A stretch of DNA of 64,000 nt from Thermoanaerobaculia bacterium (GTDB lineage Bacteria; Acidobacteriota; Thermoanaerobaculia; Gp7-AA8), in NCBI GenBank assembly GCA_035525285.1, contig DATLFB010000044.1, positions 108,441 through 172,440 of the forward strand, read 5' to 3'. Numbering within the stretch: the stretch's first letter is position 1; each line of letters starts with the position of its first letter. The notes under the pieces are model-generated. The model was not told the DNA's origin. It saw only the letters and a program-made list of their open reading frames with translations, and did no database searches. Shown here in pieces: positions 52,341-58,592 of the stretch. The position numbers and the translations under genes are program-made.

Positions 52341-52919
52341 ATGACGGTATCGTTCCACGACGTCAGATCCTCGTACGCCGAGTACGTCGCGTTCGAGAAT
52401 TCGAGCAATGTCAGGCACGAATTCCTCGATGGTCGGATCTACGCGATGGCGGGTGGGACGCCGGAGCATGCGGCGCTGGCGATGGCCTTCGGTGGTCAGT
52501 TGTACGCGCAACTCCTCGGCGGGCCCTGCCGTTCCTATCCTTCGGACCTGCGCATCCTCACGCGCTCCAGTCTCGCGACCTACCCCGACCTTGCGGTGAT
52601 CTGCGGATCACCCCTCCGCGATGTCAGCGATACGCTCGCAGCTACGAATCCGACGATGATTGTCGAGGTCCTCAGCCCTAGCACCGAGGAGTACGACACC
52701 ACCGAAAAGTTCGAGCACTACAAAACGCTCCCATCGCTGCAGCAATACGTGCTCGTGTCTCACCGCGAACGCGCCATTGAAGTCTGGACAGGTGAGAGAA
52801 GCGGCACGTGGCAGAAAACCACCGTGCGCGAAGGCGAGATCGCCGATCTCGTCCTCGGCTTGCGCCTCGACGTCCGCGAGCTCTACGACGCAGCCGCCGT
52901 CCTGCCTGCTCGAACGTAA
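52341..52919 (+). CDS. Uma2-family (DUF820) putative endonuclease
   Basis: Contains EFLDGRIYAMAGGTPEHA, PDLAVICG, and TMIVEVLSPSTEEYDTTEKFEHYKTLPSLQQYVLV. Confidence 0.75.
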   Translation: MTVSFHDVRSSYAEYVAFENSSNVRHEFLDGRIYAMAGGTPEHAALAMAFGGQLYAQLLGGPCRSYPSDLRILTRSSLATYPDLAVICGSPLRDVSDTLAATNPTMIVEVLSPSTEEYDTTEKFEHYKTLPSLQQYVLVSHRERAIEVWTGERSGTWQKTTVREGEIADLVLGLRLDVRELYDAAAVLPART

Positions 52920-52930
52920 CCCTGACGTTC

Positions 52931-53626
52931 CTACCCGAGAAACTTGTAGCCGAGTCCGTGCACCGTGACGATGAACGCCGGCCGCGCGGGATTCGACTCC
53001 AGCTTCTGGCGCAGCGAGGCGATGTGCACGTCGACGGTGCGCGTGACCGGCGTCGCGTCGTAGCCCCACACCTTCTCCAGCAGCTCGTCGCGCGAGAGCA
53101 CGGCGCCGCGATGATCGACGAGGTAGCGCAGGAGCTTGAGCTCGAGTCCGGAGAGCTCGATCGGCGCACCGGCGCGCCTCACTTCCGCGCGGCGGAAGTC
53201 AGCTTCGACGTCGCCGAACGCGTAGACGTCCGCGCTGCTCGAGGCGATCGTGCGCGAGCGGCGCAGCAGCGCTTCGATGCGCGCGAGCAGCTCCGCCATC
53301 TCGAACGGCTTGGTCACGTAGTCGTCGGCGCCGAGCTTCAGCCCGAGCACGCGATCGATCACCTGCCCGCGCGCGGTGAGCATGAGGATCGGCGTCTGCA
53401 CGCCGCGCTGGCGGAGATCGCGGCAGACGTCGAAGCCGTTCTTCTTCGGCAGCGCGACGTCGAGCAGGATGCAGTCGAACGAGCGGTTCGTCGCCGTTTC
53501 GAGCGCCGCTTCGCCGTCCGTCGCGACCGTCGTGTCGTAGCCCTCGCTCGCGAGGCGGTCCTGCATCGTGAGGATCAGGCTCTCCTCGTCTTCGACGAGC
53601 AGGATGCGGCGCTGCACTTCACCCAC
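52931..53626 (-). CDS. OmpR-family response regulator
   Basis: A receiver domain (ILLVEDEESL...CILLDVALP) and a winged-helix domain (LLEKVWGYDATPVTRTVDVHIASLRQKL) are present. Confidence 0.85.
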   Translation of the reverse strand: MGEVQRRILLVEDEESLILTMQDRLASEGYDTTVATDGEAALETATNRSFDCILLDVALPKKNGFDVCRDLRQRGVQTPILMLTARGQVIDRVLGLKLGADDYVTKPFEMAELLARIEALLRRSRTIASSSADVYAFGDVEADFRRAEVRRAGAPIELSGLELKLLRYLVDHRGAVLSRDELLEKVWGYDATPVTRTVDVHIASLRQKLESNPARPAFIVTVHGLGYKFLG

Positions 53627-55247
53627 GATGCGTCTCCGCCGGCAGGTGGATCGTGAAGGCCGCGCCGCTGCGCCGTTTGCGATCGACGTCGACGGAGCCG
53701 CCGTGCGCGCGCGCGATCTGCTGCACGATCGCCAGGCCGAGGCCCGCGCCGCGCACGCGGGTGCTGTTGCGGCCGCGATAGAAGGGCTCGAAGAGACGCG
53801 CGGTGTCGCGGCCGTCGATGCCGGGCCCGCGGTCCTCGACGGTGATCGCGACGCCGCTGCCGTTGCGCGACACGCGCACGCCCACCCACCCGCCGCTGCC
53901 GCCGTGACGGATCGCGTTCGCGACGAGGTTCTGGATCGCGCGGGTGAGCGCCTGCGCGTCGCCGCGCACGCGCGGCAAATCCGTTTCGACCTGCGTCTCG
54001 ATGGTCACTTCCGCGTCGAGGGCACGGCATTGCTCCACCGCCTCGCCGACGATCGCCTCGACGTCGACCGGCTCGTGCGACGCGCGCGCGTTGGCGCGCG
54101 CCTGGATGCCCGCGAAATCGAGGACCTGCGCGACCATGTCGCCGAGGCGCGCGGATTCCTTCACGATCACGTCGCCGTAGCGCGTGAGCTTCTCGCCGTC
54201 GGCAACGATGCCGTCCTTGAGGTTCTCGCCCGCCGCGCGCAACGCGGCGATCGGCGTGTTCAGCTCGTGCGTCATCGCCGCGACGAATTGCGCCTGCTGC
54301 GCGCGCAGGCGATCCGCGCGGCGCAGCAGCGCGAGCAGCAGCGCGACGGTGGCCGCGAGAATGAAGAGGATGCCGAAGCTGAGCGCGAGGTTGCGGCGGC
54401 GCGCGGAGGCGACGAGTGTCTCGAGCGCCGCATCGCGCCGGCGCACGAGAAGACGCCACGGCTCCATCGGCGGTCGATTCGGCGCCATCGCGCGCAGCGG
54501 CACGGGGCGCACCGCGGGCTCGAATGCGACGAACGGCACTTCGACGTCAGGCAGCGTGCGTCCGTCGGGCCACGACGGGTCGGAGCGGAACAGCAACTCC
54601 GTGCCGCGCATCACCGCGACGTCGTACGAGTCGGTTCCCGTCGCGAAGTGCTGCGCCGCGAGCTGCGGCAGGATCACGTCGACGAGCTGCGCGCGATCGA
54701 GCTGCACGAAGATCGCCGGGCGATCGTCACGCATCTCCTCGAACCCTGCCGGCGGCGGTCCGCGCCTCGGCGCAATCAACAATCCCGGCACGTCGGCCAC
54801 GAACGGCGGCGGCCAGCGCGCCGGTCCTGCCATCGATTCAATCTGCCGCCGCAAGCCCGCGAGCGCCTCCGGCCACGTGCTCTCGACGAGCTGCAGCGAG
54901 TCGAGATCGAGCATGCGCACGGAGTCCCGCTGGATGACGTAGATGTTCGCGATGAGCCGCGGATGCACGGCGATGCTCGCCCAATCCCCGTAACGCTGCC
55001 CGAGATCGCCGCCCTCGGGACGCGCGAAGCTCTCGAACACCTCCCCGATCTCCGCGCGGAGCTCCTCGGTGAAACGGCGCGCGGCGAAGTCGATGTTCGC
55101 GCGCATCCGCTCGCGCTCCGCGTCGCTGACGCGATCGATCCAGCCGTACTGCAGCACGGCCAGCACGCCGAGGCCGGCGACCAGAAGCACGAGCAGTGCG
55201 GCGAGCAGCGCGTTCGTGCCGCGCGAAGGACCCCCCGATGAACCCAT
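53619..55247 (-). CDS. sensor histidine kinase (HisKA / HATPase_c), Cpx/Bae-like
   Basis: Two TM helices flank a periplasmic region of about 250 aa. The H-box is FVAAMTHELNTPIAAL, and ATPase motifs are present. Confidence 0.8.
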   Translation of the reverse strand: MGSSGGPSRGTNALLAALLVLLVAGLGVLAVLQYGWIDRVSDAERERMRANIDFAARRFTEELRAEIGEVFESFARPEGGDLGQRYGDWASIAVHPRLIANIYVIQRDSVRMLDLDSLQLVESTWPEALAGLRRQIESMAGPARWPPPFVADVPGLLIAPRRGPPPAGFEEMRDDRPAIFVQLDRAQLVDVILPQLAAQHFATGTDSYDVAVMRGTELLFRSDPSWPDGRTLPDVEVPFVAFEPAVRPVPLRAMAPNRPPMEPWRLLVRRRDAALETLVASARRRNLALSFGILFILAATVALLLALLRRADRLRAQQAQFVAAMTHELNTPIAALRAAGENLKDGIVADGEKLTRYGDVIVKESARLGDMVAQVLDFAGIQARANARASHEPVDVEAIVGEAVEQCRALDAEVTIETQVETDLPRVRGDAQALTRAIQNLVANAIRHGGSGGWVGVRVSRNGSGVAITVEDRGPGIDGRDTARLFEPFYRGRNSTRVRGAGLGLAIVQQIARAHGGSVDVDRKRRSGAAFTIHLPAETHRG

Positions 55248-55405
55248 TTGCCGGCGAGTCTAACGCGGTGCGCGCGGCGCCGCGCGGCGTCGCATCCACG
55301 TTTTACGTTTCTTACGAAGTTCTTGCGACGTCATGAAGTTCCCGGCGCGCGATGAGGCCATATTGCGATGCATCCGAAACGGGACAAACGAAAGGAAACG
55401 AAAAC

Positions 55406-55873
55406 ATGAAACGCCTCATCATCCTCACTCTCTCGGTTCTCCTCGTGGCCGCCGGCGCGTTCGCCGCGCCGCCGCCGCCCCAGCAACAGGGCCCGGGCGC
55501 GCCGTCTCCTCCGGGCGGAGGTCCTCGCGGCGATGAGATCCTCGCCGATTACCTCGATCTCACCGCCACTCAGATCGAATCGTGGAAGACGATCCAGACC
55601 GAGCTCCGCGCGGCCGTCGAGCCGCTTCGCGAGCAGGAGCGCGCGCTGCACGAGCAGCTCCGCACCGCGCTCGACGGAACCGACGCGAATGCGATCGGCA
55701 GCCTGATGCTGCAGATCCGCGCGATCGGCGATCAGGTCAAGGCCGCGCGCGAAGCGGCCGACGCAAAGTTCGTGGCGCTGCTGACGACCGAGCAGAAAGC
55801 GAAGTTCGAGGCCTTCCAGGCGGCGGTCGAATTTCTCCGCCAGAATGGGCCGGGAGGTGGCCCGCCCCGCTAA
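55406..55873 (+). CDS. periplasmic Spy/CpxP-like protein (LTxxQ motifs)
   Basis: Signal peptide MKRLIILTLSVLLVAAGAFA. Contains LTATQIESWKTIQ and LTTEQKAKFEAFQ. Confidence 0.7.
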   Translation: MKRLIILTLSVLLVAAGAFAAPPPPQQQGPGAPSPPGGGPRGDEILADYLDLTATQIESWKTIQTELRAAVEPLREQERALHEQLRTALDGTDANAIGSLMLQIRAIGDQVKAAREAADAKFVALLTTEQKAKFEAFQAAVEFLRQNGPGGGPPR

Positions 55874-55948
55874 ACTTCACGGCAATCGTGCGGGCGGCGG
55901 CCGATCGACGCGGATGGCCGCCGCCCGAACGAGGCAGGCATAGACACC

Positions 55949-56458
55949 ATGCGAATCAAATTCGTTCTTCCTCTCCTTTTCATCGCCGTCGGCGCGCTCG
56001 CGCAGCCGATGGAGCCGCCGCGCGGCGGCGGCCGGCGCGGGCCGGAGCTCCTTCCGCCGCCGGGCTGGTGGCACGATCCGTATCTCTCTGAGAGCGTGAA
56101 CCTGACCGACGAGCAGACCGACAAGCTCGACGACCTGCAGGACGCCGCGCGCGCCGAATCCAGACAACTCGAACGAGACGTGCGCAAAGCGGACGACGAG
56201 CTGCGCGCCGCGCTGAATGACCGCAACGCCAGCGTCGAGCGCATCGTCGCCGCTGGCAATCGCGTCGCGACGCTGCGCGATCAGATGCTGCGCAAGCAGA
56301 TCGTGGCGCTCGCCAATCAGCGCGCGATCCTCACGCATGCGCAATGGACCGCGCTGCAGAAGCAACTCGACGAACGGCGCGGCCCGCCGATGCACGATCG
56401 CGGCGGCTTCCGCCCGGGCGGTCCGCCACGCGGCGGAGGCATGCGGCCGCCGCGGTAA
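55949..56458 (+). CDS. periplasmic Spy/CpxP-like protein (LTxxQ motifs), second copy
   Basis: A signal peptide is followed by LTDEQTDKLDDLQ and LTHAQWTALQKQ. Confidence 0.7.
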   Translation: MRIKFVLPLLFIAVGALAQPMEPPRGGGRRGPELLPPPGWWHDPYLSESVNLTDEQTDKLDDLQDAARAESRQLERDVRKADDELRAALNDRNASVERIVAAGNRVATLRDQMLRKQIVALANQRAILTHAQWTALQKQLDERRGPPMHDRGGFRPGGPPRGGGMRPPR

Positions 56459-56459
56459 A

Positions 56460-56805
56460 ACGTAGCGGCGGGCTTTAGCCCGCCTACGGGGCCGACCGGC
56501 TGAAGCCGATCGGAGATCGGCGGACCGGCCGACTGAAAGTCGGCGTTCCGTTTTCGAGTAGCGCGGCCTTCCAGGCCGCCGTGTCGCTGGCTTCCAGCCA
56601 GCGATGTCGCCGGCAGGATGCCGGCGTTACGGCGGGCAGGATGCCCGCGCTACAACTCCCGCTTGGGCAACGGTCATGGAACGCCGACATGCTGTCGGCC
56701 GGTCCGCCGACTTCCAGTCGGCGGGTTTTGACGCCGATCGGAAATCGGCGGACCGGCCGACTGAAAGTCGGCGTTCCGTTTCGAGAAAAAGGTAGGCGGT
56801 CGCTA
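56460..56805. repeat. hairpin-dense non-coding region with two direct copies of about 55 nt
   Basis: GCCGATCGGA(G/A)ATCGGCGGACCGGCCGACTGAAAGTCGGCGTTCCGTTT occurs at 56506-56556 and 56733-56790. At least five more stem-loops lie between them. One (ccgccgacttccagtcggcgg + gttttg) looks like a terminator. Confidence 0.8.
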
Positions 56806-56810
56806 CGTTC

Positions 56811-57701
56811 TCACGCGCGTTTCTTTTTCTTCATCGCCGCGCGTTTGCTCGCGCGGCGCGGCGGCTTGCGGGCGGCCGTGCCGCCGCCGAGGGAGCGGCT
56901 GAGGACGGCGAGGAGATCGACGACTTCCGCGCCCGGCTCTTCCGGCTTCATGCCTTCCGGCGCGCGGATCACGTCCTCGCCCTTGCGTTGCTTCGCGGCG
57001 ACGAGCTTCTCGAGCCGCTCCTCATAGTCGTCGAGCAGCTCCCCCGGATCGAGCTTGCGCGACTTCTTCGCGATCTGGCTCTCGAATTTCTTCACGTCCG
57101 CGGCCGTCGCCTTCGCTTTCTTCGGCAATCCGATCTGCTCCGGCGTGCGGACTTCGTCGTGGAAGCGCAGCGTCTCCGCGCGCAGGATCCCATCCTCGGC
57201 CAGGATCGCCACGAGATACTCCTTCGCGCGCATCACGAACGTCGCGATGCCCGCGTATCCCTTCTTCTCCATCACTTCGGCGAGCAGTCGATACGCTTTG
57301 TTCGAGCCGCCGGAGGGAACGAGGAAATAGCCGCGCTCGAAGTAAACGGGATCGAGCGCATCGGCATCGACGAAGAGCTGCAGATCGATCTCGCGCGACT
57401 TGCGCGGCTCGATCGCCTCGAGCTCTTCATCCGTGACGACGACGTACTTGTCCTTCTCGATCGCGTAGCCGCGCACGATGTCGTCCGCGTCGAGCTCCTT
57501 CTCGTCTTTCGAACAGATGTAGCGCCGCTCGACCGTCGCGCCGTCGGGTCCGACCATGCGCAGCGCGGTGCCGCCGGAACGCGTCGCGGCGTAGAGCGCG
57601 ACGGGAACGGTGACCAGGCCGAACGTGATCGTGCCGGTCCAGAACGAGCGAATGCCGCCCGGTGCGCTGCCTTCTTCGACGTCTTCGAGCTCCTCAGCCA
57701 T
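56811..57701 (-). CDS. ku: Ku protein (non-homologous end joining)
   Basis: FWTGTITFGLVTVPVALY matches the Ku core, with a Lys-rich C-terminal tail. Confidence 0.85.
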   Translation of the reverse strand: MAEELEDVEEGSAPGGIRSFWTGTITFGLVTVPVALYAATRSGGTALRMVGPDGATVERRYICSKDEKELDADDIVRGYAIEKDKYVVVTDEELEAIEPRKSREIDLQLFVDADALDPVYFERGYFLVPSGGSNKAYRLLAEVMEKKGYAGIATFVMRAKEYLVAILAEDGILRAETLRFHDEVRTPEQIGLPKKAKATAADVKKFESQIAKKSRKLDPGELLDDYEERLEKLVAAKQRKGEDVIRAPEGMKPEEPGAEVVDLLAVLSRSLGGGTAARKPPRRASKRAAMKKKKRA

Positions 57702-58482
57702 GTTTCCTCTTTCCCGCGCCCGCGAGACTCGCCTCGAGGACGTCGGCGAGCTGCTCTTCGCGCTTCGGCTTCCGCGGGCGGAAGACTTTCATCTTCACCT
57801 TCCCACCCTCGGCCTTCGTTTCGACGAGCTCCATCACCCGCGCGCGGTACTCATCCCGATATTGCGAGGGATCGAGCTCGCCGTGCAGCGCTTCGAGCAG
57901 CTGCGCGGCCATGTCGAGCTCGCGCTTCTGCATCGGACGTCCGCCCGGCGGCTTCAGCGCGTCGGCGGCGATGATCTCGTCCGCGTGCCGCAGGACGATG
58001 AGCATCAGATGGCCCTCCTCTTCGCGCAGCGCACCCGCGTACGCGCGGTCGCGCATCACCCACTTCGCGATCGCCTGTTTGTTTTTCTTCCTCAGCGCCT
58101 CGGCGAGCGCAAAGTAGGCCTTCGTGTTGCCGTCGGGTCCGAGGTAGTACGCGCGCTCGTACCAGCGTTGATCGACGTCCGCGGGATCGACGAAACGCGT
58201 GATCGCGATGTCGCGCGATTCTTCCGGCTCGAGCGTTTCCAGCTCCTCGTCCTCGAGGACGACCATCCGCCCGCGCGACACCGGATACGCTTTCCTCACC
58301 TCGGCGTACTCGACCGGCTTGCCGCTCTCCGAGCTCACGAGTTGCTGCTTGACGGGTTGCTTGTCGGTCTTGTGCAACAGGCGGAAGTGCACCGTGCGAT
58401 CGGTGACTCCGGAGTAGAGCTTCACCGGCACCTCGATCGAGCCAACATGAATGACGCCTTTCCACATCGCGCGTGCGGCCAT
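57694..58482 (-). CDS. ku: Ku protein, second paralog; its stop overlaps the first Ku start by 8 nt
   Basis: MAARAMWKGVIHVGSIEVPVKLY is the Ku N-terminus. I chose the ATG at 58482. The ORF-track start at 58584 runs into a palindromic element. Confidence 0.8.
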   Translation of the reverse strand: MAARAMWKGVIHVGSIEVPVKLYSGVTDRTVHFRLLHKTDKQPVKQQLVSSESGKPVEYAEVRKAYPVSRGRMVVLEDEELETLEPEESRDIAITRFVDPADVDQRWYERAYYLGPDGNTKAYFALAEALRKKNKQAIAKWVMRDRAYAGALREEEGHLMLIVLRHADEIIAADALKPPGGRPMQKRELDMAAQLLEALHGELDPSQYRDEYRARVMELVETKAEGGKVKMKVFRPRKPKREEQLADVLEASLAGAGKRKHG

Positions 58483-58514
58483 GCCGAGGATCATTGCAAA
58501 TGGAACGCCGCCTG

Positions 58515-58592
58515 TGTGGAGTGCGGCGACGCCAGTCGCCGCTTCTCTACGCGCATACAACAGCGGCGACTGGCGTCGCCGCACTCCACATC
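58515..58592. repeat. MITE-like element with terminal inverted repeats of about 30 bp (TGGAGTGCGGCGACGCCAGTCGCCGC...GCGGCGACTGGCGTCGCCGCACTCCA)
   Basis: The same inverted repeats, with a longer internal spacer, occur at 476-590 between the ABC ATPase and permease genes. Confidence 0.85.

Follow-up and report, generated by a model that had tools for sequence, protein, structure and literature searches.

A proposed Cpx-like envelope-stress circuit at a divergent two-component and LTXXQ gene locus in Thermoanaerobaculia

The 64,000-nucleotide stretch of contig DATLFB010000044.1 analysed here (assembly GCA_035525285.1, Thermoanaerobaculia bacterium, an uncultured acidobacterium of soil), hereafter the window, carries a locus of four genes in which a membrane histidine kinase and a response regulator, encoded on the minus strand, face two plus-strand genes for small periplasmic proteins of the LTXXQ family, referred to as A and B. 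We propose, with a probability of about 60%, that this locus is a lineage-specific (Thermoanaerobaculia), autoregulated Cpx-like envelope-stress circuit built from non-orthologous parts, into which a second accessory protein has been recruited. Our confidence in this proposal lies chiefly with the regulatory wiring, and much less with any specific biochemical role of the proteins. The features of the locus, in window coordinates, are as follows (protein lengths in amino acids, aa).

52931-53626, minus strand: OmpR/PhoB-family response regulator, 231 aa (Pfam Response_reg 1.4e-29, Trans_reg_C 2.9e-27)
53619-55247, minus strand: membrane histidine kinase, 542 aa (Pfam HisKA 1.9e-13, HATPase_c 2.2e-28)
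55257-55262, minus strand: -10-like hexamer TAGACT, conserved 9 nt upstream of the kinase ATG, candidate promoter
55302-55338, minus strand: candidate regulator-site block, from conservation across related spacers
55406-55873, plus strand: LTXXQ protein A, 155 aa, the member of the LTXXQ pair that is conserved with the two-component system (LTXXQ 45.2 bits, Metal_resist 42.8 bits)
55886-55932, plus strand: GC-rich hairpin in the gap from A to B, lacking a U-tract, from folding and conservation, putative terminator or attenuator of gene A
55949-56458, plus strand: LTXXQ protein B, 169 aa, a lineage-specific accessory paralogue (Metal_resist 43.9 bits, LTXXQ 37.7 bits)
56467-56484, no strand assigned: GC hairpin just after the B stop codon, from terminator scan and fold

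The divergent locus and its conserved core

A preliminary description of the window had placed the two-component genes on the minus strand opposite two plus-strand LTxxQ genes; this gene content and divergent layout were borne out, with all four genes found at 52931-56458 and with the Response_reg and Trans_reg_C matches agreeing with the OmpR type that had been given for the regulator. The kinase gene comes first and the regulator gene second, the two overlapping by 8 nt, and the divergent spacer from the kinase gene to gene A is 158 bp long. Profile searches placed both A and B above the gathering scores of Pfam LTXXQ (PF07813, 24.3 bits) and Metal_resist (PF13801, 29.2 bits), and they are bona fide members of the LTXXQ family, as had been suggested; a hidden Markov model (HMM) built from LTXXQ proteins found no others in the window.

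The conserved unit of the locus is a set of three genes, A, kinase and regulator. We compared 15 distinct loci in which the spacer site described below stands beside an A-like gene (the window, L002-L005, L007, L008, L019-L022, L030, L031, L037 and L038), taken from Thermoanaerobaculia metagenome-assembled genomes and soil metagenomes, the named relatives being Thermoanaerobaculia, Acidobacteriota. The A-like gene lay opposite a kinase gene in 14 of the 15, with the regulator gene next wherever the contig reached it, and since the flanking genes varied throughout while these three stayed together, chance adjacency is excluded. The regulator was 77-91% identical across these loci, the kinase sensor 39-75% and A 37-75%, and A was present alone, with no B, in 12 module loci other than that of the window. 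At L022 (1-1007) the A-like gene keeps the regulator site and its divergent neighbour encodes an NtrC-like receiver protein, not a kinase; we take this to be a rearranged locus in which the A-like gene is presumably still under control in trans. More remote A-like proteins (33-47% identity; L023-L036) were found in other contexts and without the site.

A conserved candidate site in the divergent spacer

Alignment of the spacers on the kinase strand revealed a common order of CTTCATg-N4-cGcAAG-N6-GTAAGaAACGTAAAac, some 35 variable bases and then gcgTTAGACTC. In the window the site is read on the minus strand as CTTCATG (55338-55332), CGCAAG (55327-55322) and GTAAGAAACGTAAA (55315-55302), and it is composed of three direct G(T/C)AAR half-sites, at 11 and 9 bp spacing, together with one inverted copy, the shared core being GCAAG-N6-GTAAG-N4-GTAAA. 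The 14-mer GTAAGAAACGTAAA was identical in 14 of the 15 distinct loci, with a single A-to-G change in L005, and the site was kept in all 15 spacers while the identity of A drops to 37-43% and that of the kinase sensor to approximately 40%. Within the 64 kb of the window, the copy at 55302-55315 was the sole match to the 14-mer even with 3 mismatches allowed, and the looser pattern GTAAR-N4-6-GTAAA occurred once (0.02 expected). The 14-mer was not present in the loci with B only or in the sigma-factor-linked loci considered below, and no second regulator site was found, whether ahead of B, at the B-only loci or in the rest of the window.

Direct repeats approximately one helical turn apart are typical of regulators of the OmpR/PhoB kind. 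The GTAAG-N4-GTAAA part of the site is one mismatch from the published CpxR consensus, GTAAA-N4-8-GTAAA (PMC5063474). From the sequences of these spacers we infer that the phosphorylated regulator binds the spacer site and controls both promoters. No sigma-70 consensus promoters were found at 52.5-57 kb, so promoters were assigned from conservation alone. The gcgTTAGACTC block lies 7-10 nt before the kinase start codon and was conserved in 14 of the 15 spacers, and we suggest TAGACT as the kinase promoter. Because this hexamer lies 9 nt before the ATG and no Shine-Dalgarno sequence was seen there, as in the 14 related spacers with the TAGACT block, the kinase-regulator mRNA is probably leaderless or nearly so. 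L022 retains the site with its A-like gene but has neither the kinase as the neighbour of that gene nor the TAGACT block, which fits TAGACT serving as the kinase promoter and the repeats serving A.

The kinase sensor and the two LTXXQ proteins

The kinase was found to run from a first transmembrane helix (TM1) through a periplasmic sensor of approximately 245 aa (residues 36-280) and a second transmembrane helix (TM2) directly to the dimerisation and histidine phosphotransfer (DHp) domain and the ATPase domain. No HAMP domain was matched in the kinase by Pfam at E<=1, and the linker from TM2 to the HisKA match is only approximately 10 residues long. Residues 1-301 were modelled with AlphaFold2 (mean predicted local distance difference test, pLDDT, 80; predicted template modelling score, pTM, 0.70); the model has a long helix at the N-terminus, followed by two alpha/beta modules in succession and by TM2, and the sensor is predicted to be a double-PDC (dCache-like) domain. 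This periplasmic domain is acidic (isoelectric point, pI, 5.1). It belongs to a sizeable family that is matched by no Pfam model, an exhaustive search having returned 1277 cluster representatives at E<=1e-3, of which 288 also pass E<=1e-10; the idea of an 'orphan' sensor domain, to which the 11 matches of a word-index search had pointed, was rejected as an artefact of the index. In two relatives the kinase was split into two open reading frames (ORFs), which could reflect a frameshift, a pseudogene or an assembly error, the break falling between sensor and catalytic core in L005 (6001-7631) and inside the catalytic core in L007 (6001-7588).

The start of gene A was set at 55406 (MKR), giving 155 aa, because homologues and the gene call of L001 begin there and an AGGA motif lies 11 nt before it; the mechanical ORF begins 54 nt upstream, at an ATG at 55352. 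Both proteins carry Sec-type leaders, read from the sequence as a basic n-region, a hydrophobic core and a cleavage motif: MKRLIILTLSVLLVAAGAFA in A, ending in AFA with cleavage before A, and MRIKFVLPLLFIAVGALA in B, ending in ALA with cleavage before Q. Each has two LTxxQ motifs (LTATQ at 55559-55573 and LTTEQ at 55781-55795 in A; LTDEQ at 56102-56116 and LTHAQ at 56330-56344 in B), and across 45 aligned LTXXQ sequences the L and Q of the first motif and the L, T and Q of the second were invariant. A was 49-61% identical to the single LTXXQ gene of the related loci L002-L008 and is its orthologue. The mature proteins differ in charge, A being acidic (pI 5.0; median 5.9 for the 64 full-length proteins among its 65 homologues) and B basic (pI 9.8; 8.4-10.1 within the B group). 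Neither the A family nor the B family has a conserved His or Cys in its alignment.

B differs from A in its relationships also. The two are 26% identical (BLASTP, E = 0.007) and their profiles are clearly homologous (hhalign 97%), and a word search with B returned only three non-self homologues. A scan with an alignment of B, covering one genome per species, found relatives at 7 loci of Bryobacterales and Terriglobia (L012-L018), in all of which the LTXXQ gene came third in an operon. These operons open with a gene for an extracytoplasmic function (ECF) sigma factor, confirmed by Pfam in the three that were tested. The product of the second gene, a small membrane protein that contains CxxC and is matched by no Pfam model, is a putative anti-sigma factor. 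A heavy-metal resistance protein stands at position +2 in the same context in the published groups ECF281 and ECF290 (PMC7826278). An HMM of the seven ECF-linked proteins scored B at 75.7 bits and A at 18.0 bits, and the A-family HMM scored A at 210.3 bits and B at 23.0 bits; B has a WWHDP motif preceding its first LTxxQ, and WW(H/D/N/E)xP is common to B and its ECF-linked relatives. These scores, the ECF-linked relatives and the common motif place B in a different clade from A, and it was apparently recruited, not duplicated in place. The preliminary description had read the pair as a CpxP-like gene duplicated and diverged, and here it has to be revised: a recent tandem duplication of A into B was rejected on the 26% identity, on the scores of B (75.7 bits with the ECF-linked HMM vs 23.0 with the A-family HMM) and on its being missing from the 12 other module loci.

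B-like genes were found to touch the same two-component system in two layouts, which argues for a functional link. The four-gene layout of the window recurs in L037 and L011 with the same B-like protein (A 75% and B approximately 78% identical to those of the window), and these look like one lineage, B having been seen in this layout in only two lineages; in L009 and L010 a B-like gene (approximately 49% identical) instead runs convergently towards the 3' end of a regulator gene that shares 81-86% identity with that of the window. Between A and B, the stretch 55866-55955 folds at -44.8 kcal/mol (z = -3.8), and the hairpin was nearly identical in L011 and L037 despite an identity of only 81% over the DNA of the whole locus; the final 60 nt of gene A were 100% identical. 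The A-B hairpin may be a terminator or attenuator of A, since most of the A-only loci that were folded also have a strong hairpin right after A. Neither a regulator site nor a conserved -10 element was found in the A-B gap, which holds one -10-like hexamer that is not conserved; with the hairpin upstream of B and no site or conserved -10 element of its own, B is probably made at a lower level, by read-through from A. A search of Rfam with the A-B hairpin returned no family, and the palindromes further downstream gave only sub-threshold microRNA-like matches, which are hairpin artefacts.

The 3' end of A with the hairpin (55810-55932) is among the most conserved DNA of the locus against L037 (93-100% vs 81% overall), and it recalls CpxQ, the small RNA cut from the 3' untranslated region (UTR) of E. 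coli cpxP, which is annotated in the E. coli record. An LTXXQ protein of a third kind, which matches DUF4890, was seen opposite a LytTR-type two-component system in L003 (9741-12128) and L008 (10462-12882), its gene being followed in L003 by one for a resistance-nodulation-division (RND) pump adaptor; LTXXQ genes paired with signalling systems are recurrent in this class (Thermoanaerobaculia).

The genes flanking the locus appear unrelated to it and differ in every relative, those in the window being for a Uma2 nuclease and an M15 peptidase upstream and for two Ku proteins and a PBP1C-like protein downstream. The Uma2-family nuclease gene (52341-52919, plus strand; Pfam 5.8e-31) converges on the regulator gene, with 12 nt between its end and the regulator stop, and in no relative does it adjoin the module. 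The tandem Ku genes (56811-57701 and 57694-58584, both minus strand and both with Pfam Ku matches) overlap by 8 nt; no ligase D gene adjoins them, the next gene being the PBP1C-like one, and a heterodimeric bacterial Ku is possible. The hairpin at 56467-56484 has a T-run on the minus strand and may also terminate these convergent genes. The gap from B to the Ku genes (56501-56781) is made up of nested palindromic repeats, with two 53-nt direct copies at 56501 and 56729 and inverted arms of 45-47 nt, resembling REP (repetitive extragenic palindromic) or MITE (miniature inverted-repeat transposable) elements in appearance.

The proposed circuit, its alternatives and known systems

In the circuit that we propose, the kinase, with its double-PDC periplasmic sensor joined directly to the DHp domain, would phosphorylate the OmpR-type regulator, which would bind the G(T/C)AAR direct-repeat array in the 158-bp spacer and from there drive both its own kinase-regulator operon and gene A, so that the two would be induced together. 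A would be the principal, and perhaps the only, local output. By analogy with CpxP, Spy and ZraP it would be a stress-induced periplasmic holdase for damaged proteins, and it may also feed back on the kinase and damp it, much as CpxP, itself induced by CpxR, is thought to inhibit CpxA through direct contact (PMC6737893). B would have been added downstream of A in the lineage of the window, taken from the clade linked to ECF sigma and anti-sigma factors, and could supply a second range of clients or give the acidic sensor domain a second input. As a matter of speculation, the basic B is a more plausible electrostatic partner for this sensor than A.

Several observations weigh against this proposal. 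The regulator resembles the CpxR model no more closely than it does those of RpaB, MtrA or PhoB, and the likeness of its site to the CpxR box could be convergence. The surfaces of Spy and CpxP are basic and A, unlike them, is acidic. Most solved double-PDC sensors bind small ligands, which hints at a chemical signal over misfolded protein. The place of B in the circuit is affected by three further points: its link with the two-component system was observed in only three independent lineages, the B-like gene of L009 has a different upstream sequence without the site, and the A-B hairpin could terminate transcription fully.

In one alternative, the kinase would sense a small molecule through its double-PDC domain and A would be simply an output, a chaperone like Spy that does not feed back on the kinase; we consider this a possible but somewhat doubtful account. 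It is unlikely, in our estimation, that B is a passenger, set beside A by rearrangement, with its own transcription and in the service of another pathway such as an ECF sigma/anti-sigma pair elsewhere in the genome. Such a role would suit its ECF-linked clade, the strong hairpin that separates it from A, the lack of a regulator site upstream of it, its absence from the 12 other module loci and the separate upstream region of the L009 gene; it sits poorly with the recurrence of B-like genes at the same two-component system, in tandem in the window, L011 and L037 and convergent in L009 and L010, with the absence of a conserved -10 element from the A-B gap and with the finding that no ECF sigma gene adjoins B in the stretch 49.5-60.9 kb.

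A metal-stress module resembling ZraPSR or CnrX, in which A, B or both would bind a periplasmic metal ion and either report it to the kinase or buffer it, seems quite improbable to us. It would account for the passing of the Pfam Metal_resist threshold by both proteins, for the heavy-metal context of the ECF operons that carry distant relatives of B at +2 (PMC7826278) and for the name 'periplasmic heavy metal sensor' that B has from NCBI. The model of B, which has the long alpha-helical hairpin of the LTXXQ superfamily with a core pLDDT above 90, also found its best structural match in ZraP, with CnrXs matched at 22% identity. The metal ligands of CnrX, which we take from the CnrXs structures to be His42, His46, Glu63, His119 and Met123, are however not kept: in a HMMER alignment of the B profile with 2y3h, which does not reach H42, the positions of H46, E63 (Q in the entry), H119 and M123 are occupied by S, Q, A or L, and Q. 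This, with the lack of any conserved His or Cys, speaks against a CnrX-type metal site, and the automatic name is probably not justified.

Returning to the Cpx-like circuit, it can be extended in a way that we regard as a long shot. LTXXQ proteins would then be interchangeable plug-ins between the two main architectures of envelope signalling, and B would have been rewired from an ECF pair to a double-PDC kinase that reads both the acidic A and the basic B, perhaps joined as a heterodimer. The hairpin would set their ratio, and the hairpin and the unusually conserved 3' end of A might jointly give rise to a small RNA from the 3' UTR, like CpxQ.

If the proposed circuit is right, the Cpx/Zra design of a two-component system with a divergent LTXXQ gene under the same candidate regulator site would extend to Acidobacteriota, an abundant soil phylum. 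We know of no characterised envelope stress response in Acidobacteriota, and a literature search on such a module in Acidobacteriota or Thermoanaerobaculia gave no mention of CpxP alongside the phylum in its top-ranked results. The locus yields a precise candidate cis-element and a defined set of parts. It also illustrates that LTXXQ genes standing in tandem are not necessarily duplicates, the clade of B being normally tied to ECF sigma factors, and the origin of B hints that small LTXXQ proteins may move between signalling systems. An LTXXQ gene beside a two-component system would not surprise a specialist; what is noteworthy is that the site is alike across phyla and that an LTXXQ protein of the ECF type appears to have been recruited to a kinase.

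Among characterised systems, LuxQ/LuxP offers a double-PAS periplasmic sensor that reads a partner protein, and its likeness to the kinase sensor is in fold only (4-7% identity); LuxQ is a hybrid kinase, unlike the kinase here, and LuxP, a periplasmic binding protein, has no relation to the LTXXQ family. Like CnrX and the ECF281 and ECF290 proteins, the nearest relatives of B outside its own small group sit in sigma/anti-sigma/LTXXQ operons (7/7 acidobacterial loci), but B itself, unlike CnrX of CnrYXH, adjoins a two-component system and has not kept the CnrX ligands. ZraPSR, the zinc-associated envelope-stress system of enterobacteria, differs in its regulator, ZraR being an NtrC-type sigma-54 activator; the regulator here is of the OmpR type, with no AAA+ or sigma-54 activation domain in Pfam. 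Nor do A and B have a conserved His or Cys for metal binding. Spy, an ATP-independent periplasmic chaperone, was the best sequence match among solved structures for the A and B profiles (3oeo; E = 0.031 and 0.006 respectively, both marginal, CnrX being touched by the B profile also). The NCBIfam Spy model was likewise the top match for A, but at 23 bits against a cutoff of 174 A is no Spy equivalog, and its acidity is unlike Spy. To our knowledge, Spy is not encoded beside its regulators.

The preliminary description had held that the locus mirrors cpxP/cpxRA, and this stands for the divergent layout, the LTXXQ family and the CpxR-box-like site, and falls for CpxRA identity, gene order and sensor. 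The regulator is 42% identical to E. coli CpxR, but it scored 183.7 bits on the CpxR model against a cutoff of 341, below its scores on the RpaB, MtrA, YycF, CreB, PhoB and CseB models, and it reached none of the NCBIfam equivalog cutoffs. The kinase scored 101.3 bits on the CpxA model (cutoff 486), through its catalytic core only, and the core alone aligned with E. coli CpxA, at 31% identity. A and B gave BLASTP E values of 0.11 and 0.003 with E. coli CpxP, and 18.4 and 16.6 bits with the CpxP-family model PRK12750 (cutoff 148). Orthology to CpxRA, CpxP, Spy or ZraSR was rejected on these missed cutoffs and on the direct comparison with the E. coli genes. CpxA has a single PAS-like periplasmic domain followed by HAMP, and the kinase here differs from it in its predicted double-PDC sensor and lack of HAMP; the order of the operon is cpxR then cpxA in E. 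coli and kinase then regulator here, and there are two accessory proteins, from different clades. Of the Cpx-specific traits that were tested, it was the promoter box that agreed, and the equivalog scores, kinase architecture and gene order that did not.

In mode of working, by contrast with these differences in parts, Cpx appears by analogy to be the closest system. Both have a gene for an LTXXQ periplasmic protein divergent from an OmpR-type two-component operon, across spacers of similar length (149 bp in E. coli, 158 bp here), and both have a GTAAA-type direct repeat on the strand of that operon, the E. coli box being GTAAAACAACGTAAA. This box precedes the cpxR start by 56-70 nt and that of cpxP by 80-94 nt; in the window, the site precedes the kinase start by 55-68 nt and the start of A by 91-104 nt. 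The locus thus shares with Cpx the accessory family, the divergent layout, the regulator type and a site alike in type, strand and position, and it is best described as a circuit of the Cpx/Zra type with a different sensor and with two accessory proteins that are not sister copies.

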